A stretch of 32,636 bases of DNA, from assembly GCA_031267435.1 (NCBI GenBank), contig JAIRZB010000019.1:1-32636 (forward strand). Direction: 5' to 3'. Each line of letters starts with the position of its first letter. The stretch's first letter is position 1. This DNA comes from Puniceicoccales bacterium. Its GTDB lineage: Bacteria; Verrucomicrobiota; Verrucomicrobiia; Opitutales; LL51. The notes beneath the pieces were generated by a model, which was not told where the DNA came from, made no database searches, and was given only the letters and a program-made list of their open reading frames with translations. Of this stretch, positions 2,108-32,636 are shown in pieces. The translations under genes and the position numbers were made by a program.

Positions 2108-4216
2108 ATGGGTGTAGGTTTAGGTTTAGATCCTCATCGAGGCGCTCCCAAAATAGTGGATACGCAAGCTCCCCCATCAACGGACGGAATAGCAGAATCG
2201 AGACAAGGAATAATTAAGCAAGGATCGGTGCATGGATCACGCAATCCATTCAAAAATCTGGCGGCCTCGTTCGTAAAGATGGCGACCTGGTTGAGCGGCA
2301 AACTCAAGGGAAAGGCAATGACAAGCCGAACCAAAGCAAAAACAGAGCCCCAAAGTTTTGACTCTAGTAAAAAGGCAGCGGTTGCAAAGCTCTCAGCCTC
2401 AGCCACAAAGTCTGCATCAATTGCCCCACCGACTCCAAAGCCCGAAGAGCTAAACAAGAGCCATGGTATTGGGCCTACAGCACCTGCAACTGGGGGCACA
2501 GTAATATTAGATGTGGAAAAAATGAGAGACCCAAAACTCATTGCCCAATCGGATGCTATGCGGCCAGAAGCGGACCTTCAGAGTGTTTTTGAAGGTATGG
2601 ACCCGGACAAAGCAAAGGAAGCTGCTGGAGGACTAAAAGACCATCAGGAGTTAGGACTATTGGCCGGCGCCCAAAAGCCCGTCGCAAGCCCCCCAACGGC
2701 AGCTGCAACAGACCCAGCGAAATCGGCAGCGCCAGCAACAACCGCAGCCCCAGCACCAGCTGGAGGCTTGTCAATTGGTCAACGCGCAGAACATTACCAA
2801 AACGAAGCCCGTAAGGCAATAAAAGCTGGAAACCCCGAGTTGGCCCTTGCATGCCTTCAGAAGGCTAACGAAGAATGCAGCACCCCTGATGGTCGAAAAG
2901 CTTACCTGGCCATGAAAAAACCAGCTAGAGTAGCATTTCATGAGGAGCAAGAAAAACTTTATAACGAGCTTGGAAATTCTGAAGCTGTCCAACGGCATCA
3001 AAATCAAGCCACCGATGAACACTTTGGATTTGGCTCAACAGGCAGAGGTTCTTGTCGAGAACGAACCTCTAATGCAATAAATGACGGAAATCTCGACTTG
3101 GCCCTTGAATACCTTCAGGTGCTTGAGGACCAACGACAGCACACCCCCGAAGGTCGGCAAGTCTGGTGGGGAATGTCCAACGAAGCACGCTCGAATTATT
3201 TCGAAGCCATGGCTACGCTATGTGACAAGATTAATAATGAGTCGGGCAAAAAATTGGCGGAAAATATGCGTCAACTGGCCGCTGAGGCATTGAACCCACC
3301 TCCGCCAGCGCCAGCCGCAGCGCCAGCCGCAGCGTTAGCAAGTGCAAGTCTGTCAGAGATGCTAGCAAGTGCTATGAGTGAGCTAGAAAAGGTTGAAAAC
3401 TTTACTAGCTGTACGCCCGAACAACAGGTATATATTAAAGAATATGCACGGCAAATGATCGAAGGTGGTGATAAACCAGAGTTTGCCATAGCCGTATGCA
3501 AAGACATGGCACTTCTCTATCAAGAAGGCATAGATAGGACGATGCCTGATGCCATTAATGTTGCAGGTACAGCTAAAAATGATCAACAAATGAGAACGAA
3601 TGCTGTTGCGCAGTTGCGCGATATCATGAAAGCAAACGGAGGCGATTATGGTACTATTGCGAGTTATTTGCGGGCTCAACAAGAAGGTAGTGATAAGGCG
3701 CTATCTGTTGTGATGCGATATTTTTTAATGCAACAACGTCAAAATCCAGGTGAAGAGCGTTTTCTAGCGATAAATGAAGGGAAAATGAAGGAGGCATTTG
3801 AAGCATTTGAAGGAAATACAGAAGAATATGCTAAAACTGTTGCCATGTATAAAGCATTTACTGCTATTGCTCTAAATAAAGTTGGTTTTGAAGGTCGTAA
3901 TCCTCAAAATCACACATGTACTGTTTATCGTGGGATGTCGACTGAAGCCTTGAATGCAGCATATCCGGGTTATGATCAGAAACGAGACGGGGATACTTTT
4001 ACGATCAAGCACAATCCACTGGAATCGACATCTATTGGAGGTCCGATTGACACTTTTAATGGTCCGGGAAAGGATACACATACGACGGAAGTTCCTTTCA
4101 GTAGAGTTCTTGTAGCTTATTTTATGTCGCCGGAAATGTGTGCTTCTTTTTGTGCCACAGAACATGAATTTATTTGTGATTTAGTTGGTATTCCTGCCAA
4201 GATTAAACATAATTAA
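2108..4216 (+). CDS. Modular 702-aa protein: disordered Ser/Thr/Pro/Ala-rich N-terminus, two ~75-aa helical repeats, Pro/Ala linkers, and a C-terminal R-S-E type mono-ADP-ribosyltransferase-like domain
   Basis: ORF track entry. The C-terminus carries TVYRG (R608, nt 3929-3931), LESTSIG (S640-T-S642, nt 4025-4033) and ATEHEFI (E685-x-E687, nt 4160-4168). Spacings are 32 and 45 aa, consistent with the R / STS / ExE triad of C3/Vip2/ExoS-type ARTs. There is no signal peptide. Internal repeat: AIKAGNPELALACLQ..TPDGRK versus AINDGNLDLALEYLQ..TPEGRQ. Confidence 0.6.
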   Translation: MGVGLGLDPHRGAPKIVDTQAPPSTDGIAESRQGIIKQGSVHGSRNPFKNLAASFVKMATWLSGKLKGKAMTSRTKAKTEPQSFDSSKKAAVAKLSASATKSASIAPPTPKPEELNKSHGIGPTAPATGGTVILDVEKMRDPKLIAQSDAMRPEADLQSVFEGMDPDKAKEAAGGLKDHQELGLLAGAQKPVASPPTAAATDPAKSAAPATTAAPAPAGGLSIGQRAEHYQNEARKAIKAGNPELALACLQKANEECSTPDGRKAYLAMKKPARVAFHEEQEKLYNELGNSEAVQRHQNQATDEHFGFGSTGRGSCRERTSNAINDGNLDLALEYLQVLEDQRQHTPEGRQVWWGMSNEARSNYFEAMATLCDKINNESGKKLAENMRQLAAEALNPPPPAPAAAPAAALASASLSEMLASAMSELEKVENFTSCTPEQQVYIKEYARQMIEGGDKPEFAIAVCKDMALLYQEGIDRTMPDAINVAGTAKNDQQMRTNAVAQLRDIMKANGGDYGTIASYLRAQQEGSDKALSVVMRYFLMQQRQNPGEERFLAINEGKMKEAFEAFEGNTEEYAKTVAMYKAFTAIALNKVGFEGRNPQNHTCTVYRGMSTEALNAAYPGYDQKRDGDTFTIKHNPLESTSIGGPIDTFNGPGKDTHTTEVPFSRVLVAYFMSPEMCASFCATEHEFICDLVGIPAKIKHN

Positions 4217-4607: not shown

Positions 4608-4637
4608 GCGTTAGTTGGGATATGTTTAGGAGGTATT

Positions 4638-4750
4638 CTGTTGATCATAGGTAAGGGGAGATTTCGTTCCCATTCCGAACACGATCGTTAAGCCCTAAAT
4701 CGCCGATGGTAGTGCCGCCACGATAGGATGCGAGAGTAGGTCGTTGCCAG
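4638..4750 (+). rRNA. rrf: 5S rRNA-like gene, orphan (no 23S/16S in window), possibly degenerate
   Basis: The stretch cccattccgaacacgatcgttaagccc...cgccgatggtagtg...gcgagagtaggtcgttgccag matches the conserved 5S loop C, loop E and 3' segments (compare E. coli CCCAUGCCGAAC...CGCCGAUGGUAGUG...GCGAGAGUAGG). By hand, the helix IV segment ccgccacgatagg is not self-complementary, and helices I and II have mismatches. Ends are approximate, within about 5 nt. Confidence 0.65.
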
Positions 4751-4759
4751 TATTCCAGT

Positions 4760-4915
4760 CAGGTGCTGCGCGCCGAGCTGAAAAAAAGTCAAGGAAGCTG
4801 CGACTCCTTGCGGGGGGCACGGGGCAGAAAATAAAAGCTACACGCCCTTAAGAATCCGGTCCCGGGTTCTCGCCCGAGATTGCGGGGAGCCGCAGGGCTG
4901 CACCCATGGTGGCTT
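4760..4915. repeat. GC-rich mosaic hairpin element (locus 1 of a family)
   Basis: The core gtcaaggaagctgcgactccttgcggggggcacggggc (4788-4825) is near-identical to 32408-32443. In addition, cgcccttaagaatcc (4843-4857) resembles cgcccttaggaatcc (32218-32232), and gctgcgcgcc is shared. It fills the gap between the 5S-like gene and the glgP stop. Confidence 0.6.
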
Positions 4916-19617: not shown

Positions 19618-20583
19618 TCAATTTGCCGGGATATGCTCTTCGATAATCGCAATTACCTGTTCCAATGTATTTCCCGATGTATCGATGATAATCGCATGGG
19701 GATCGAAATAATAATGATCCATGGCGTCACGTTGTTCCACTTCATCTTTTTCTCCTTCGCTAGCTCGACGATGGGCACGAATTCGAGAGTCGGCTGTCAG
19801 AAAAAATTTTGCACTTGCTTTCGGCATAATAATGGAACAAATATCCCGGCCTTCCATCACGATGCCCGTGAAATTCATTTTTTTTGCTAATTCAACAAGA
19901 CTTTGCTGATAGGTTTTCAGTTTCTGTCGCAATTCCGGGATGCGTGCAAAGGAAGCTACTTTTTGGTTGAGCTCCTCCGAATGCAGTTCCGTGTGGTGAA
20001 GAATTTTGCCATTGATGGACAAATGTTCCGCAGTGCCATCTAATTGTGTTGCTAGGACAAGGCTGGTTAGTTCTTCTGGAATGCGTGGGTCGGCTGCCGT
20101 TGGAATGTTTTTTTGTAAAAAATAAAATGTCAGTGAACGGTAATGATCACCGGTATTGACATTTAGTAGGTAATGTTTTTTTGCCAGAGCACGTGCCGTC
20201 GATGATTTTCCTGACGCCGCCGTACCGTCGATTGCTATGGACAAAAAAAGCTTCGAAGAATCGGCGCACATATGCAGAAATTGGTTTCTAAGTAACCAAA
20301 AATTGGGAAGAATTCCCTTTCGCGCAATGACTAAGTAATCATTTTGGGGATTCAAACGGGATTGTTCCCCATGAAATATTTCCCGGAAAATACGTTTAAC
20401 GCGATTGCGTTCGTGGGCTTTTCCCACTTTTTTTCCCGTAATAATAGCGAACCGCGGCAGTGTATTCGATTTGTTTTTTTTTATTTTCACAAAAAAATCA
20501 CGCACATTGCGATGAATACTGTTCGTTCGAAACTGTTCAAAATCAGCTTGTTTTTTTATTCGCTGACATTTTTGAAGGCGCAT
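19618..20583 (-). CDS. rnpA/cmk: Single ORF fusing RNase P protein component (aa ~1-110) to cytidylate kinase (aa ~113-321)
   Basis: The N-terminal part has GKKVGKAHERNRVKRIFRE (RnpA RNR motif) and lies 2 nt downstream of rpmH. The C-terminal part has IAIDGTAASGKSS (P-loop), MEGRDI and ADSRIRAHRR, which are Cmk hallmarks. No stop separates the two. An internal in-frame ATG (M105) is at 20271-20269. Confidence 0.85.
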   Translation of the reverse strand: MRLQKCQRIKKQADFEQFRTNSIHRNVRDFFVKIKKNKSNTLPRFAIITGKKVGKAHERNRVKRIFREIFHGEQSRLNPQNDYLVIARKGILPNFWLLRNQFLHMCADSSKLFLSIAIDGTAASGKSSTARALAKKHYLLNVNTGDHYRSLTFYFLQKNIPTAADPRIPEELTSLVLATQLDGTAEHLSINGKILHHTELHSEELNQKVASFARIPELRQKLKTYQQSLVELAKKMNFTGIVMEGRDICSIIMPKASAKFFLTADSRIRAHRRASEGEKDEVEQRDAMDHYYFDPHAIIIDTSGNTLEQVIAIIEEHIPAN

Positions 20584-27241: not shown

Positions 27242-27322
27242 GTGCTCTGTGAAGAGTTTAATTCATAATTGACGTTTTGCGCGAAACTTTTAGTTTTACA
27301 ATCAAGAGAGTTGAAATTGGGG

Positions 27323-29050
27323 ATGGCGAGGGATCGGAGTAAAATGGTATTATGTGTGGCGGACGCTGGCGTATGTCTTTGCAAGGTTACCGATCAGAAA
27401 GGTCGCGCATTTATTCTTTCAAGCCAGATTGTTCCGGCGGAACATTTTGCGACAAGCAAGAAAGATTGGTTGCGGGCAGCATTGAAAAATTTTAAACCTA
27501 AGCTGCTCGGGCAAGTGACGGATATTCTTATTTCAACGACGTTGATCCACTATATTCCCTTTGAAGTTTTTTATCTGCGCGAGGAAAATTTTAACCGAGC
27601 TATGCTATTGGAACTGAAAAATTTGCTTGGTGATAAAATTTCGCAATTTAAGTTCGGGATCTATCGGACCGAGGGAAATAATATTGCCCACATATTTGGG
27701 GCTCAACAATCGATGATTACGAGCTTAAACACGGTATTGGAATCCGTGGGCATTAAAAAAGCGAAGATTTTACTTTCTCCGGTTATGTTTATCGAGGAAG
27801 GTAGGCGGCAGATCGTAAATGCGGATGTTGTTTTCCTCTATATCGGTCGCAATCTCATTTCTTTTGTTTTGCGCAAAGGGAGCGAAAGCGTTTCCCATTT
27901 GATGCCCATACAATTGGGGGCGCTGGCTAAAAAAATGTCGCAAATTATGAATCGAAATTGTTCCGAGGAGAATGTGTATCAATTCATCAAGAATTCCCAG
28001 GAACAGAAATTGGATCAGGCTATCCAGTATGTATTGGATGAATTTTTCGAGGAGCTTCGTTTGGCTATTATCCAAGTTGTGGAGCGGTATTTTGGCGAAG
28101 GAGAGCGTATCACATGGGTTGTTGGTGGCTGCTATGACCAACTGTATGGCATTCGCCAGCGGCTCGAAAACAAAATGGAACGAAAAATTATTCCATACCA
28201 TGTCGCATTTAAACAACAAATTTCACCGTCCATCGAAACAGATACCGCTGCGATAATAGAACCTTTCGTTCCCGGTTTGCTCGCAACGGCTACGCTCGAT
28301 AAAAAACAACTCACGAAAATCGTTAATTTGCAAACGGATGCACTTGTTACCAAATTAAAAAAGGAAAAACCATTTTTTTATCAAAATTTCGTTGCAGGTT
28401 CAGTTTGTGTTGCGTCGGTATTGCTATATTTTTCCCAGCACCTCAATTGCCAATACATTGCCAGCGAGACCCAAAATAAGAAATTGCTTACAGAACAGAG
28501 CGAAATGGTACGCATCACTAAGCAAATCGAAGATATCAATAGTCATATCAGGGAGCAAAAAAAAATGTTGGGTGATGTTTTAGTATACATCGAACAAAGT
28601 CGAAAATGGTGCGAATTGTTCAATGCTCTGCAAAAAATTTTAGCCGAAGCGGAAAACGTTTATCTGACCTCGTTCATATGGAATATGCAAATGAATAAAG
28701 CGAAGGAAGGAGAAGTGCGTAAGGCGAAGGAAGGGAATTCATCCGCTAAAAAAACTCAGAAAACTCCCCCTAAAAAAGAGGTGGATGAGACTGATGAGAC
28801 TACGCCTAAACTCCCTAAGGTAACTTCGTCGATCGCTATGATGGGGAGCATGTTCATTGGCAATGTGACGATTACTAAGGATGTGGAACAGGAATTTAAT
28901 GCCAAATTCAATGAAATGTTTGACAAAATTCGCAAGCTATTGCTTTGTGCCGAGCTCGGCGATATAAAAGTAAATGTTCCTGAGAATGGTAAAATCACCT
29001 TTCGGTGTACCATGGAAGTCAATGCGAAATCGAAAATTATGGCGCTATGA
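27323..29050 (+). CDS. PilM-like actin-fold ATPase fused to a PilN-like TM plus coiled-coil plus C-terminal domain
   Basis: The N-terminal ~340 aa show PilM/FtsA-like patterning (VLCVADAGVCLCKV; VVFLYIGRNLISFVL; IQLGA..; ITWVVGGCYDQLYGIRQRLE). These are followed by a TM segment (FVAGSVCVASVLLYF), a coiled coil and a K/E-rich linker. The start is ATG 27323 or 27344; the ORF track uses TTG 27269. Confidence 0.65.
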   Translation: MARDRSKMVLCVADAGVCLCKVTDQKGRAFILSSQIVPAEHFATSKKDWLRAALKNFKPKLLGQVTDILISTTLIHYIPFEVFYLREENFNRAMLLELKNLLGDKISQFKFGIYRTEGNNIAHIFGAQQSMITSLNTVLESVGIKKAKILLSPVMFIEEGRRQIVNADVVFLYIGRNLISFVLRKGSESVSHLMPIQLGALAKKMSQIMNRNCSEENVYQFIKNSQEQKLDQAIQYVLDEFFEELRLAIIQVVERYFGEGERITWVVGGCYDQLYGIRQRLENKMERKIIPYHVAFKQQISPSIETDTAAIIEPFVPGLLATATLDKKQLTKIVNLQTDALVTKLKKEKPFFYQNFVAGSVCVASVLLYFSQHLNCQYIASETQNKKLLTEQSEMVRITKQIEDINSHIREQKKMLGDVLVYIEQSRKWCELFNALQKILAEAENVYLTSFIWNMQMNKAKEGEVRKAKEGNSSAKKTQKTPPKKEVDETDETTPKLPKVTSSIAMMGSMFIGNVTITKDVEQEFNAKFNEMFDKIRKLLLCAELGDIKVNVPENGKITFRCTMEVNAKSKIMAL

Positions 29051-29925
29051 AAAAAATACTTTACAGAAGTTTGCAGGTATGTTTTCCGATTGCACTATTA
29101 CTGGTGATTTTTTTTCTAGGCCATTGGTGTTGGAATCGGTATGCCTGTATCGTCACGATGAATGACAGCGATGTTAAAGCAAGGGAAGAAATCCAAAAAT
29201 TGTCCAAGGGAAAACCTTTCCCCTCGGAGGAAAATTTACAGAAAGTTATTCAAAAATCAAAGAATTACGATATCGATTATCAACTTTATACCGCAGCGCG
29301 TCAGCAGTTTGATTTGGAATTCTTAAAGTCAAAGAGACCTAGAAATGAAGTGGATTTTTATTTCTTATTGATGGCTTATATTAATTTCTTGACGAATTAT
29401 GCCAAAGAATCGGCCGTTACTGTTCCTGCTAATACGGCATTTGGCTTCGAGCCCTATTCGCAAAAAGATGTGATTCCGATGCAGGCCCATATCGATGAAC
29501 TCTATAAGCAGAGTAAGATTATTGTGAAATTATTGCTTTTGCTTTTTGATTCCAATGTCTATGGCATGGATTTGCTTAGCCTATCCCGTGAGAGTGTCGA
29601 CGGCAATAGCGGTAATCAAAAATCCGGTGATAGTGTGGGCACTTTGGATCGAAATAAAGTAGCTCTTAATCGTAAGGATACTGTAAAGTCTTATTTCTTT
29701 AGCATCGAATTTTCCTGCCATACTAATGCTCTCCGGAATTACATCAATAAATTACAGGAGTATGGTTTGCCTGTAATTGTGCGTTCATTGGCAATCAATA
29801 GCGAAAGTAAAAATTCCTCGGGGGATGTAATTTCGCTGACGGAAAAAGTTAAAGTTTCGATGGTATTGGAGTGGTTGTTTATTCGAGACGAAAAGAATGC
29901 TTTAAAGTCGGAAGATAAAGAATGA
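29047..29925 (+). CDS. Membrane-anchored PilO-position protein; resembles, from memory, the Akkermansia Amuc_1100 family
   Basis: It has an ATGA overlap with the upstream gene and an N-terminal TM segment (VCFPIALLLVIFFLGHW). The segments AFGFEPYS... and ALRNYINKLQEYGLPVIVRSLAINSE recall Amuc_1100 (LGFQVYS..., ...FTVNSIRIRNE) as I remember that sequence. This is unverified. Confidence 0.55.
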   Translation: MKKILYRSLQVCFPIALLLVIFFLGHWCWNRYACIVTMNDSDVKAREEIQKLSKGKPFPSEENLQKVIQKSKNYDIDYQLYTAARQQFDLEFLKSKRPRNEVDFYFLLMAYINFLTNYAKESAVTVPANTAFGFEPYSQKDVIPMQAHIDELYKQSKIIVKLLLLLFDSNVYGMDLLSLSRESVDGNSGNQKSGDSVGTLDRNKVALNRKDTVKSYFFSIEFSCHTNALRNYINKLQEYGLPVIVRSLAINSESKNSSGDVISLTEKVKVSMVLEWLFIRDEKNALKSEDKE

Positions 29926-30764
29926 TAAAAATAGCGAAATTTTTGATATTCATTGCTCTTGTTTTTATAATGATGTCCGCGGAGCGGGCGATAGAAGCCT
30001 GGCAGCTGCAGTTGCGGAAAGATGAGCAACGTAATGCTAGTCAAGCGGCCCCGAAGCAGCCCGTGGTGGTCGAGAGAGAAACGATCGATATTTCAGATGT
30101 TCCTTGGAAAAATCCACAAATTGCACCCAAGGGTAAAAACTGGACATTTGATCTTTTTACTTCGCCTACTATCCTACGCGAAGGAACGGAATTCAAGGCG
30201 ACACTCCCGTGGATGGAAAAAAGTCAATCGACAATTAATTTTGAAATTATTGAATTGGGCAAAAAAGTTTATCCTTTGCAATTCTCTGGTTACTTCTCTC
30301 AGCCTATGGTCGATGGCAAAAAATCTGAAGATTATTCGTTTTCATTCATGCTGAGTGATGTGCAAAACCGTGAATCGTTACAGGTCCAATTGGGGCAGGT
30401 CATCGAGCGCTATGATGTTGAAATTTTGAGTTTTACCGAAAAAGGCCCCAATGGGGAAGTTCAGGGGTATCCGCAATTAAAAGTTATGGATCGCAATATC
30501 GGGCGGGAAATAATTTTAACGCCGGAAAAAAGATATTATGACCAGCTATTTGTTATTCGTTTGCGTTCAAAGGTTGACGAAAAGGAGTTTTTTTTATCCC
30601 ACGTGGATGAAGAGTTTTCCGTAGGTAGTGATCAATATGTACTCAAAAAAATCGATGAAGAAAAAAAGATGCTTGAATTCTCGCAAAAAATGGGAAAAGA
30701 TTCCTGTGTTTTTTCGTTGGGAATTGTTTTAGGAAATACTCCTGGAATTACAAAACCAATTTAA
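29922..30764 (+). CDS. Membrane-anchored periplasmic protein in the PilP position (280 aa)
   Basis: It has an ATGA overlap with the upstream gene and an N-terminal TM segment (FLIFIALVFIMMSA). The remainder looks beta-rich. No family recognised. Confidence 0.5.
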   Translation: MIKIAKFLIFIALVFIMMSAERAIEAWQLQLRKDEQRNASQAAPKQPVVVERETIDISDVPWKNPQIAPKGKNWTFDLFTSPTILREGTEFKATLPWMEKSQSTINFEIIELGKKVYPLQFSGYFSQPMVDGKKSEDYSFSFMLSDVQNRESLQVQLGQVIERYDVEILSFTEKGPNGEVQGYPQLKVMDRNIGREIILTPEKRYYDQLFVIRLRSKVDEKEFFLSHVDEEFSVGSDQYVLKKIDEEKKMLEFSQKMGKDSCVFSLGIVLGNTPGITKPI

Positions 30765-30856: not shown

Positions 30857-32191
30857 ATGGAAAAAGAGCATACAATTTCGCGGGATTTTATTAGACCTTC
30901 TTATGCGTATCTTATTGAAAAAAAACGTGACGGCGAAGAATTTTCCGATGACGAAATTCGATTTATTACGAATGCGATTTTGGACAAAACAATCCCGGAT
31001 CATCAACTCGCTGCATTGGCTATGGCGGTCTATTTTCAAGGTATGACGCCTCAAGAAATTGCCGTATTTACGGAAGAAATGATGTTGACCGGAGAGGTGT
31101 TTGAACTTCCACGTATTACGAAACCGAAGTTAGATCGTTATGCAACCGGTGGTGTTGGCGATAAAACAGGGTTAGTTTTAGTTCCTTTAGCCGCAGCCTG
31201 TGGCATTGCCGTTCCATCGATGATTGGCGAAGAGGAAGGCTTTATTATTAGTGATCTCGATAAATTACGTTCCATTCCAGGATTTCGGACGAATATTCCC
31301 CATGATCAATTTGTTAAACAGTTGCAGCAAACAGGGTGCGCGGTCATTGAGCAATGTTCGGAAATTACACCAATTAATACACTTCTTTTTAAACTGCGTA
31401 AGGAAACGGGGACGGTGCCGAGTTTACCGTTGTTGACGAGTAGTTTGTTGAGTAAAAAATTTTCGGAGGGCGCGGATGGATTAGTAGTCGACGTGAAATG
31501 GGGCAATGGGGCCTATGTACGCGATGTGGAGAGTGCAAAACAATTGGGGCGTATGGTAACTCGTGTAGCGAAATCGATGAATCGGAAATGTGTCGCTCTG
31601 ATTACGGATATGAATCAGCCCCTAGGGAGCTGTGTGGGAACGGGACTTGAAATGCAGGAAGTTTTACAGCTTTTGCGCGGCGAAAGTGATCCGGAGTTGG
31701 ATGAATTAATTTTGCGCTTGGGCATGGAAATGGTGCGTTTAGCCGGAGTTGCCGGTTCGACACTTTCAGCAAAACAAATGGTACGCAAGCATTTGAGTGA
31801 CGGTGTTGCGTTAATAAAATTGCGCGAGATGGTGGAATCACAGGGAGGCGATCTGAGTTATATCGACGACCCTGATAAATTTTCTAGAGCAAAATACATA
31901 AAAAAATTACCAGCGGCAAAGCGGGGCTATGTTCATACGATTGATTCGAGTATGTTAGCCCATGGTGTACAAATTTTAGCCCGGAAAAGAGATGGATCGA
32001 TTGATCATGCGGTTGGAGTTTCCGAGATTAAGAAAATTGGATACCAAGTGAAACAGGGCGAAGCGCTTATGATGATCCACTACAATGACGAAATTAATTT
32101 GGAGTCGGCGTTAGAATTTTTACGCTCATCCTATCGTTTGGCGCCTAAGCGGCCGACGCAAAATGATTTAATCGTGGAGCGAGTGGCTTAG
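30857..32191 (+). CDS. Thymidine/pyrimidine-nucleoside phosphorylase family protein with a divergent active-site signature
   Basis: Homology is clear: LIEKKRDGEEFSDDEIRFI, ATGGVGDK, DLDKLRSIPGF, LLSKKFSEG, DVKWGNGA, ITDMNQPLG. However, the family signature SGRGLGHTGGTLDKLE reads IGEEEGFIISDLDKLR, and KHSTGG reads RYATGG. Confidence 0.8.
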   Translation: MEKEHTISRDFIRPSYAYLIEKKRDGEEFSDDEIRFITNAILDKTIPDHQLAALAMAVYFQGMTPQEIAVFTEEMMLTGEVFELPRITKPKLDRYATGGVGDKTGLVLVPLAAACGIAVPSMIGEEEGFIISDLDKLRSIPGFRTNIPHDQFVKQLQQTGCAVIEQCSEITPINTLLFKLRKETGTVPSLPLLTSSLLSKKFSEGADGLVVDVKWGNGAYVRDVESAKQLGRMVTRVAKSMNRKCVALITDMNQPLGSCVGTGLEMQEVLQLLRGESDPELDELILRLGMEMVRLAGVAGSTLSAKQMVRKHLSDGVALIKLREMVESQGGDLSYIDDPDKFSRAKYIKKLPAAKRGYVHTIDSSMLAHGVQILARKRDGSIDHAVGVSEIKKIGYQVKQGEALMMIHYNDEINLESALEFLRSSYRLAPKRPTQNDLIVERVA

Positions 32192-32204
32192 ATTTATGGC
32201 AAGA

Positions 32205-32557
32205 CCTAAGGGCTGCGCGCCCTTAGGAATCCCCGCCAGGGGATCCTCTCCTGGACCTGGATTACGGCCGGCACCACGGGCTGATGCCCGTGGTGCCGGC
32301 CGATCAAGGGGCCTTGCCCCGCCCGCGGCGAAGCCGCGGGTGGGGCAACTAAGTTGACCCTGCGGCCAAGCCATGCGAACTTTCGCATGGTTTGGCCGCT
32401 GAACGAGGTCAAGGAATCCGTGACTCCTTGCGGGGCATGGGGCGGAGCCCCATGGGGAATCAAAAGCAAGAGGAATCCTTCCCCTTGCAATCCCCTTGCA
32501 AGGAACACAGTTCCTTGACCTAGGAATCCAGGCCCGCGGCGAAGCCGCGGGCCTGGA
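32205..32557. repeat. GC-rich array of at least 8 consecutive strong hairpins (locus 2 of the GC-rich family); the GC-rich tract continues to the window end
   Basis: Hand-identified stems: 32205-32227 (9 bp), 32265-32302 (17 bp perfect, loop tgat), 32317-32345 (13 bp, loop gaa), 32362-32399 (~16 bp), 32410-32430 (6 bp), 32436-32454 (8 bp), 32499-32517 (8 bp) and 32527-32557 (14 bp, loop gaa). The core cccgcggcgaagccgcggg occurs twice, and aggaatcc occurs 4 times. Confidence 0.75.
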
Positions 32558-32636
32558 TGAAAAGGACCGTTGCGGCCCAACCATTGGAAAGTTCGCGGGG
32601 GTTGGGGGCGGGACGAGGGGAAAGGGTGCGTGTCTC

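Follow-up and report, generated by a model that had tools for sequence, protein, structure and literature searches.

The window analysed here, a stretch of 32,636 nucleotides (nt) from a Puniceicoccales bacterium (contig JAIRZB010000019.1 of assembly GCA_031267435.1), ends in a near-continuous run of strong GC-rich hairpins at positions 32205-32612, with surroundings of ~42-43% GC. We think it probable that this array is a non-coding, lineage-specific composite palindromic repeat, of the kind represented by repetitive extragenic palindromes (REPs), bacterial interspersed mosaic elements (BIMEs), REPINs and miniature inverted-repeat transposable elements (MITEs), and that it has been spread and homogenised at the DNA level. 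The repeat is confined to a narrow clade of uncultured Puniceicoccales; it is multi-copy, non-coding and intergenic, its presence is polymorphic between genomes, and its copies are homogenised within genomes. The family is new, and its kind is a familiar one among bacterial repeats. An earlier interpretation of the same DNA made without database searches (the sequence-only reading) had reported a dense array of GC-rich hairpins behind a phosphorylase gene, and every stem that it named is present where it was reported. It had taken the hairpins for separate and mutually different units; instead, the ordered series H1 to H7 makes up one unit of ~270 nt that recurs as a block elsewhere.

Coordinates are window positions on the + strand unless a contig is named, with H1 to H7 denoting the hairpins of the first unit and H4' and H5' those of a second run. 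The related contigs used for comparison are L001 (JAITJQ010000076) and L002 (JAIRLD010000060), both from Puniceicoccales metagenome-assembled genomes (MAGs), and L082 to L085. The repeat unit has ~70% GC and carries its seven hairpins in a fixed order from H1 (CCTAAGGGC..GCCCTTAGG) to H7 (TATGGGGC..GCCCCATA), and the window array amounts to ~1.6 such units. Unit 1, in which H1-H7 stand in the canonical order, occupies 32203-32464; nhmmer aligned it to positions 3-278 of a unit model (E 5e-74), and by blastn it is 80% identical to L082 4604-4867. The first base of H1 (CCTAAGGGC-TGCGC-GCCCTTAGG, 32205-32227; 9 bp, loop TGCGC) lies 13 nt beyond the TAG stop codon of the phosphorylase gene (32189-32191). 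This hairpin, followed by the linker GAATCC(CCGCC), is the best conserved over all copies, while H2 (CCAGGGGA-TCC-TCTCCTGG, 32236-32254) has a conserved stem foot and a variable top. H3 (32265-32302) is a perfect 17-bp stem with the loop TGAT. H4 (TTGCCCCGCCCGCGGC-GAA-GCCGCGGGTGGGGCAA, 32314-32348) has 16 pairs including one G.T, and its core does not vary in any full copy; its loop reads GAA in the window and, in module orientation, TTC in L082, L083 and L084. H5 (GCGGCCAAGCCATGCGAA-CT-TTCGCATGGTTTGGCCGC, 32362-32399) has 18 pairs, again with one G.T, and the variant found in L002 keeps the base GCGGCC/GGCCGC under a top that is different yet paired. The stem search, the unit alignment and RNAalifold all recover both H6 (CAAGGAATC-CGT-GACTCCTTG, 32410-32430) and H7 (CATGGGGC-GGA-GCCCCATG, 32436-32454), the 3' terminal hairpin of the unit.

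Unit 1 is joined to the second run by a junction block of three small hairpins (32466-32521; hairpins at 32466-32488, 32483-32503 and 32499-32517) that is also present in L084 at ~95% identity. The last of the three is an inverted H6-like copy, and 11-nt arms at 32406-32416 and 32511-32521 pair its flank with that of H6. The partial second run (32526-32635), which nhmmer placed at model positions 117-239, starts with H4' (ATCCAGGCCCGCGGC-GAA-GCCGCGGGCCTGGAT, 32526-32558), a perfect 15-bp stem with loop GAA that has the 20-mer GCCCGCGGCGAAGCCGCGGG in common with H4. It goes on with an eroded H5' (32572-32612) and the start of an H6' that is cut by the window end (32572-32636 together). The whole window array, second half included, is collinear with the left array of L084, and the latter extends at least 100 nt further with H6', H7', a small hairpin and another H1. 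By this homology the window array continues at least 100 nt past the edge, in keeping with the sequence-only reading.

Array sequence at contig ends (window 32575-32636; L085 2370-2470) is rich in changes to G or in poly-G relative to collinear copies, which is probably sequencing or assembly noise at repeat-induced ends. Over its final ~60 nt the window differs from L084 mainly by substitutions to G, and because the poly-G end of L085 is similar, we read the window end as a low-quality contig end.

Local GC in the array is at least 0.56, compared with 0.34-0.52 elsewhere, and the stem search found no further GC-rich stem of 10 bp or more in the remaining ~32 kb. Folding against dinucleotide shuffles gave z-scores of -14.0 for + strand RNA, -13.2 for - strand RNA and -13.95 for DNA. 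The motif AGGAATCC occurs four times in the array and five times in the whole window, where 1.24 occurrences are expected, and none of 100 shuffles reached five.

Outside the window, the ordered H1-H7 block recurs at unrelated intergenic sites in L001, L002 and L082 to L085 with 80-91% identity, and six full units with the same hairpin order have a mean column identity of 82%. Within the clade sample of ~75 kb, more than 10 intergenic sites hold copies, which take the form of monomers, head-to-tail dimers, inverted partial dimers, solo hairpins and eroded stumps, and which abut stop codons, lie upstream of promoters or occupy the gap between converging or diverging genes. In L001 and L002, the contig stops 150-240 nt past the phosphorylase gene, within a chain homologous to that of the window, and the left ends of these 5.3-kb contigs carry the same chain inverted. 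A complete ~270-nt copy lies between the divergent aminotransferase and mnmG genes of L082 (4598-4870), with a partial copy at the left contig end. The 9.8-kb contig L083 holds three arrays together with a short stump between convergent genes: a partial unit followed head-to-tail by a full unit, two full units head-to-tail that begin one base beyond a stop codon, and a large palindrome of the order H1-H2-H3-H4-H3-H2-H1. In L084, arrays flank a single permease gene on both sides, at both contig ends, and L085 likewise has arrays at both of its ends. The window itself contains a second, eroded copy (4760-4911), with H6/H7-like and then H1/H2-like remnants (blastn 4788-4828; nhmmer 4786-4827 and 4832-4911), in the interval that separates the 5S rRNA gene from the 3' end of the glycogen phosphorylase gene. 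This eroded copy folds no better than its shuffles (z -0.47).

A census with the unit model over the related contigs and 78 other Opitutales loci recovered all copies in the former, along with the eroded copy behind the 5S gene of the window, and gave zero matches in the latter (1.2 Mb). These other Opitutales mostly have one ~13-bp hairpin after the phosphorylase gene. The exact 38-mer of H3 had no match in the genome contig collection, and a search of sequencing runs with two stretches of the window listed none. Patterns for H1 plus linker and for H5 had no match in viral contigs, and we therefore see no phage link. The sole metagenome match to an H1 20-mer (L081 276-295) was dismissed as a chance palindrome from a high-GC organism, where it overlaps a tRNA gene at its 5' end, and with it the idea of a tRNA-derived element, since the resemblance is confined to 20 nt. 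We found no description of such repeats in Puniceicoccales in the literature.

Further copies were located by protein-searching an antisense pseudo-open reading frame (pseudo-ORF), which led to 'hypothetical proteins' at the Joint Genome Institute (JGI) that are translated hairpin chains. In a profile search of 1.84 billion representative proteins, eight true relatives of the pseudo-ORF were found and no others. A concatenated six-frame pseudo-protein used as a query scored nothing. Gene callers have thus placed ORFs on such arrays (P0001-P0011), and the window does end within its array with ~60 nt that look error-prone, so that one might take the tract for a coding gene rich in GC or an insert of foreign DNA, for a CRISPR or integron array, or for an artefact of assembly. 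We regard all of these as extremely improbable. No credible ORF covers the array: the long ones are solely antisense and rich in Arg, Pro and Gly, as the sequence-only reading had already noted, and their relatives in the databases carry the label 'hypothetical protein', have no Pfam domains and shift in frame from one to another. With neither conserved frames nor domains, a coding gene or foreign insert was rejected. That reading had also set CRISPR aside, and it did so correctly, as the tract has no repeat-spacer architecture; direct repeats are irregular, the units are palindromes that differ in sequence, and the Rfam CRISPR-DR model scored 18 bits against a threshold of 50. An integron attC array was discarded because the hairpins abut one another and neither cassettes nor a recombinase (integrase) were seen. 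As for an artefact, the unit is present in five independent assemblies, namely two NCBI MAGs, two JGI samples and the window.

The orthologous position upstream of the phosphorylase gene provides evidence that the repeat is dynamic. In L001 and L002, an inverted copy (H1-H2-H3...) lies upstream of a block of four genes, the last of which encodes the phosphorylase, such that the block is bracketed by inverted hairpin arrays. The corresponding site in the window (27242-27320) is empty: blastn collinearity with L001/L002 starts at window 27310, and no hairpin is present at the site. Since the same site is filled in two genomes and empty in a third, the presence of the repeat is polymorphic between genomes.

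The stems of the copies have changed in sequence and stayed paired. In the H1-H3 region of six copies, pairing holds in 93% of cells, and both sides have changed in 10 pairs, against at most 2 when the partners are slid by 1-3 columns. These both-sided changes include three in H2 (six copies) and seven in H3 relative to the L001/L002 copies; the H3 stems of the window and L001 have only about half of their bases in common, and both are fully paired. Watson-Crick pairs account for 871 of the 947 cells across 91 pairs in 19 copies. The H4' stem of L084 supplies a further example, with a compensated change from GCGG/CCGC to GGCG/CGCC and a flipped loop. Copy number and covariation were among the checks proposed along with the sequence-only reading, and both other copies and compensatory changes were indeed found, again with no clean ORF.

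The copies group by genome rather than by locus. In the H1-H3 region, the window copy shares 74% identity with the L001 copy at the orthologous site (L001R), and 88-91% with the majority of copies located at unrelated sites in L082, L083 and L084. L001R is itself 87-89% identical to the copies at the left ends of L001 and L002, and the L083 copies are 91-97% identical among themselves. Such grouping means either that paralogous copies have undergone gene conversion or that sites have been re-colonised repeatedly.

Comparison of the collinear arrays of the window and L084 points to yet another kind of change. For H4 and H4', the loop in one array is the exact reverse complement of that in the other (GAA and TTC); for H3 this is nearly so, and the flanks are collinear. 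Whole hairpins must therefore have been flipped. In almost every copy, one strand of H4 shows C-GNA-G at the triloop and its closing pair, the triloop being GAA, GTA or GCA (window 32329-32333, 32541-32545; L082 4735-4745; L083 1838-1842; L002 12-16; L001 5270-5274); this is the motif of the very stable GCGNAGC mini-hairpin. The strand that bears it varies among lineages, and relative to both the unit and the neighbouring genes, and a strand rule for this triloop, suggestive at first, was dropped for that reason.

Compensatory changes such as those in H2 and H3 are also what one might expect if the unit were a multi-copy structured RNA, whether a small-RNA gene family or a cis-acting element of 3' or 5' untranslated regions with a role in, for instance, mRNA stabilisation, processing or protein sequestration. 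The predicted stability of the array is extreme, the unit is at least as conserved as the genes that flank it, and of the four stem mismatches in the window, three are G.T when read on the gene-sense strand. Two long-range helices predicted by RNAalifold, CCCCGC/GCGGGG and GACC-GG/CC-GGTC, are invariant and would close the unit, from H2 to H6, into one domain, and in the L082/L083 lineage, H4 with its T-rich tail resembles a terminator. We nevertheless judge a structured RNA unlikely. Over 19 copies the mismatches are balanced, numbering 10 G.T and 11 A.C outside the base of H5 (the base of H5 was set aside, as the wobble pairs that RNAalifold places there are dubious). Neither strand is favoured, as expected of DNA palindromes and not of an RNA read from a single strand. 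Copies stand in either orientation with respect to the flanking genes, including one between divergent genes where read-through is unexpected; the loops of H3, H4 and H4' change strand between lineages; truncated, inverted and eroded copies are common; and no promoter-like site was found in or beside the unit. A search of Rfam 15 assigned no family to the array at the gathering threshold, the best hits being generic hairpin models of at most 27 bits, and the Rfam scan of the window and L082-L084 returned tRNA and 5S matches only. The large structured RNA that the sequence-only reading had offered as an alternative thus drew no positive support from the Rfam check it recommended, from copy orientation, from the balance of mismatches or from the flipped hairpins.

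Tandem intrinsic terminators were likewise considered and rejected. A GC-rich stem followed by a U-tract is absent from the + strand throughout window 31900-32636, and a terminator-like stem with a T-tract was seen only at H4 of the L082/L083 lineage and at the single hairpin of distant Opitutales. In the L082/L083 lineage, it is an AT-rich palindrome, CTTTAATATTTTTAATTAAAG, placed after H4 that gives this hairpin the look of an intrinsic terminator (L083 1826-1866 and 2100-2140; L082 4700-4760). The window/L084 lineage carries CAACTAAGTTG at the same place.

Among the known repeat families closest to it are the REPs and BIMEs of Enterobacteria and Pseudomonas and the REPINs, which RAYT transposases mobilise (PMC3733652, PMC3116915, PMC2817692). 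These are GC-rich extragenic palindromes arranged in mosaic arrays after stop codons and between operons, in tandem and inverted arrangements, with many copies per genome. As in the present case, structure is retained in them despite changes in sequence, and families are specific to lineages. There is a precedent in the same class, since REPs tagged with GTAG are abundant in Opitutus terrae (PMC3733652). The suggestion of a BIME/REP-like cluster made by the sequence-only reading stands insofar as these are clustered extragenic palindromes at a gene end. It does not stand as an assignment to the classical families, which are defined by a conserved tetranucleotide, GTAG or CGTC, that is left unpaired on one side of the palindrome (PMC3733652). 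The unit consensus has no GTAG or CTAC flanking any stem; GTAG occurs only within the H1 loop of some copies, and CGTC/GACG only in paired form, at the H3 foot of the L083 lineage. Because no unpaired tag flanks the stems, the element is, judged by sequence, outside the GTAG/CGTC REP super-families. It further differs from REPs and BIMEs in its stems, which reach 17-18 bp (5-13 bp in REP families). Its repeated entity is ~270 nt long and has seven different hairpins in a set order, whereas REP families have conserved linkers and alternate one or two REP types in orientation. No RAYT gene was seen within the available contigs.

Likeness to MITEs lies in the presence/absence polymorphism at an orthologous site and in the near-identical copies of L083 (91-97%). 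With respect to other MITE traits, H1 and H7 share only a GGGC/GCCC core, and the flanks of ~10 copies inspected by eye are AT-rich with no direct duplication. Several bacterial intergenic repeats are modular: the pneumococcal BOX element has the structure boxA-boxB(n)-boxC, and comparable elements are RIME in rhizobia, ERIC/IRU in enterobacteria and Correia elements in Neisseria. Together with the Rickettsia palindromic elements (RPEs), these resemble the present family in being composite, non-coding, intergenic units of 100-300 nt with several stem-loops and variable modules, for which co-transcription with neighbouring genes is probable (PMC2229807, PMC3049150). In contrast to all of them, the present repeat has a far higher GC contrast with its host genome, and it shares no sequence similarity with any. 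Inspected by eye, its copy boundaries also show no clear terminal inverted repeats or target-site duplication like those of Correia elements and MITEs, and unlike RPEs, its copies were not found inside genes.

Two further comparisons can be drawn. The GC clusters of yeast mitochondrial DNA and the double-hairpin elements of fungal mitochondria are GC-rich palindromic mobile elements, and they too are intergenic palindromes that stand out in an AT-richer genome, form arrays and take part in hairpin-mediated rearrangement; they have no homology with the present unit, which resides in a bacterial chromosome and is far longer and more ordered. PATEs are non-autonomous elements derived from IS200/IS605 that move as single-stranded DNA. 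They share with the present unit similar same-strand end hairpins (H1 ..AGGGC-loop-GCCCT.., H7 ..GGGGC-loop-GCCCC..) and head-to-tail tandems; PATEs have neither terminal inverted repeats nor target duplication, and none was apparent at the copy boundaries inspected by eye. In contrast to PATEs, no conserved tetra- or pentanucleotide target was found beside the left end of the unit, the unit has five extra internal hairpins, and neither TnpA nor TnpB was seen in the available DNA.

BIMEs are bound or cleaved by gyrase, IHF and Pol I, which raises the question of whether the arrays are host-domesticated DNA architecture, i.e., clustered sites for nucleoid or topology proteins, or insulators of transcription units, kept by selection. 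The arrays do lie at the edges of transcription units and often flank a gene or operon on either side; in three independent blocks (L001/L002, L083 and L084), H1 points towards the genes; sequence conservation across genomes is high; and the short palindromic segment in the middle of the unit, whether AT-rich or CAACTAAGTTG, resembles what could be a dimer-binding site. Even so, we find this quite unlikely, given that many intergenic regions of the window have no copy, eroded copies are tolerated, and related Opitutales manage without arrays. The inward orientation of H1 is seen in few cases, subject to ascertainment bias, and is broken in L085; the three blocks had suggested that H1 faces the adjacent gene without exception, a rule that was abandoned because L085 contradicts it.

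For the mobile, composite palindromic repeat that we favour, the proposed mechanism would be that of a non-autonomous element, selfish or semi-domesticated, which spreads and is homogenised through hairpins or cruciforms formed in single-stranded or supercoiled DNA. The most likely route would be a trans-acting enzyme, encoded elsewhere, that reads the shape of the hairpins rather than their sequence. The leading candidate is a Y1/HUH transposase, either RAYT or of the IS200/IS605 type, because such enzymes read hairpin shape and leave neither terminal inverted repeats nor target duplications, and because GTAG-tagged REPs are abundant in Opitutus terrae. Gene conversion and template switching between copies probably contribute. 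The GC-richness of the unit would be the source of the stability of its short stems in a genome of 42% GC.

A copy directly behind a stop codon would also probably be transcribed into the 3' end of the mRNA. At the phosphorylase locus, the array would most likely form the 3' end of the phosphorylase mRNA, with no intrinsic terminator on the + strand. REPs of E. coli interfere with ribosome release or block 3' exonucleases. By analogy with these, a secondary role of the array in the mRNA might be that of a block to 3' exonucleases or, lying less than 15 nt from the stop codon, of an obstacle to ribosome release.

Several observations weigh against the reading of the array as a repeat mobilised at the DNA level. 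The mobilising enzyme is wholly inferred, as no transposase domain, Y1_Tnp included, was found by Pfam in the window genes or in the called genes of L082-L085. At the ~10 copy boundaries inspected by eye, there is no GTAG or CGTC tag, no clear terminal inverted repeat, no target-site duplication and no fixed target motif. Most contigs of the clade sample were found through the repeat itself, which limits any estimate of copy number per genome. The conservation of the unit (80-91%) equals or exceeds that of neighbouring coding DNA (76% at the nucleotide level), which could mean a selected function in place of selfish spread. Finally, the long-range helices proposed by RNAalifold, if real, would favour a function as RNA or as single-stranded DNA. 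Taking these helices at face value, the unit could be a folded single-strand machine or recognition module, H2-H6 being closed by the two of them, either a new large, multi-copy structured RNA or the substrate of a new hairpin-recognising recombinase that flips hairpins and places arrays in inverted orientation on the two sides of genes or operons. We consider this very unlikely; if true, either would be a system for which Verrucomicrobiota have no described counterpart.

As a DNA-level repeat, the array gives Verrucomicrobiota, and Puniceicoccales in particular, a well-defined repeat family where interspersed repeats have scarcely been described. It departs from the REP canon in its lack of a GTAG/CGTC tag and in its fixed unit of seven hairpins and ~270 nt, with ~70% GC in a genome of 42% GC. 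In addition, three processes come together in this compact natural case: compensatory stem evolution, hairpin flip-flop and homogenisation within genomes. Two practical points follow for the lineage. Its MAGs are broken into contigs of 2-18 kb, for which the arrays account: 11 of 12 observed ends of related contigs lie inside arrays, as expected because multi-copy repeats break short-read assemblies. The arrays account as well for the Arg/Pro/Gly-rich 'hypothetical proteins' produced by gene callers, and such ORFs should be masked. The mobilising enzyme, if found, would come from an unexplored clade and be a candidate for a structure-specific transposase of single-strand DNA.

The gene that the array abuts is its context and lies outside the element. 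It encodes a 444-aa pyrimidine/thymidine nucleoside phosphorylase (30857-32191, + strand; Pfam Glycos_trans_3N, Glycos_transf_3 and PYNP_C), with 92% protein identity to the L001/L002 loci and 60-65% to other Opitutales. The remainder of the four-gene block consists of three successive ORFs of 593, 306 and 280 aa (27269-30764, + strand) with no Pfam match. The window otherwise carries ordinary chromosomal genes, among them those for glycogen phosphorylase and a Clp ATPase, nusA-infB-rbfA, infC, an rnpA-cmk fusion, a 5S rRNA and two tRNAs. A 702-aa ORF without a Pfam match (2108-4216, + strand) lies within a strongly A-rich stretch, directly upstream of the lone 5S rRNA gene (4637-4752, + strand), which, with no 23S rRNA nearby in the Rfam scan, appears to be unlinked from the remaining rRNA operon. 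On the - strand, a 321-aa ORF at 19618-20583 combines an RNase P protein domain (aa 3-92) with a cytidylate kinase (aa 116-318), and this looks like the rnpA-cmk gene fusion.

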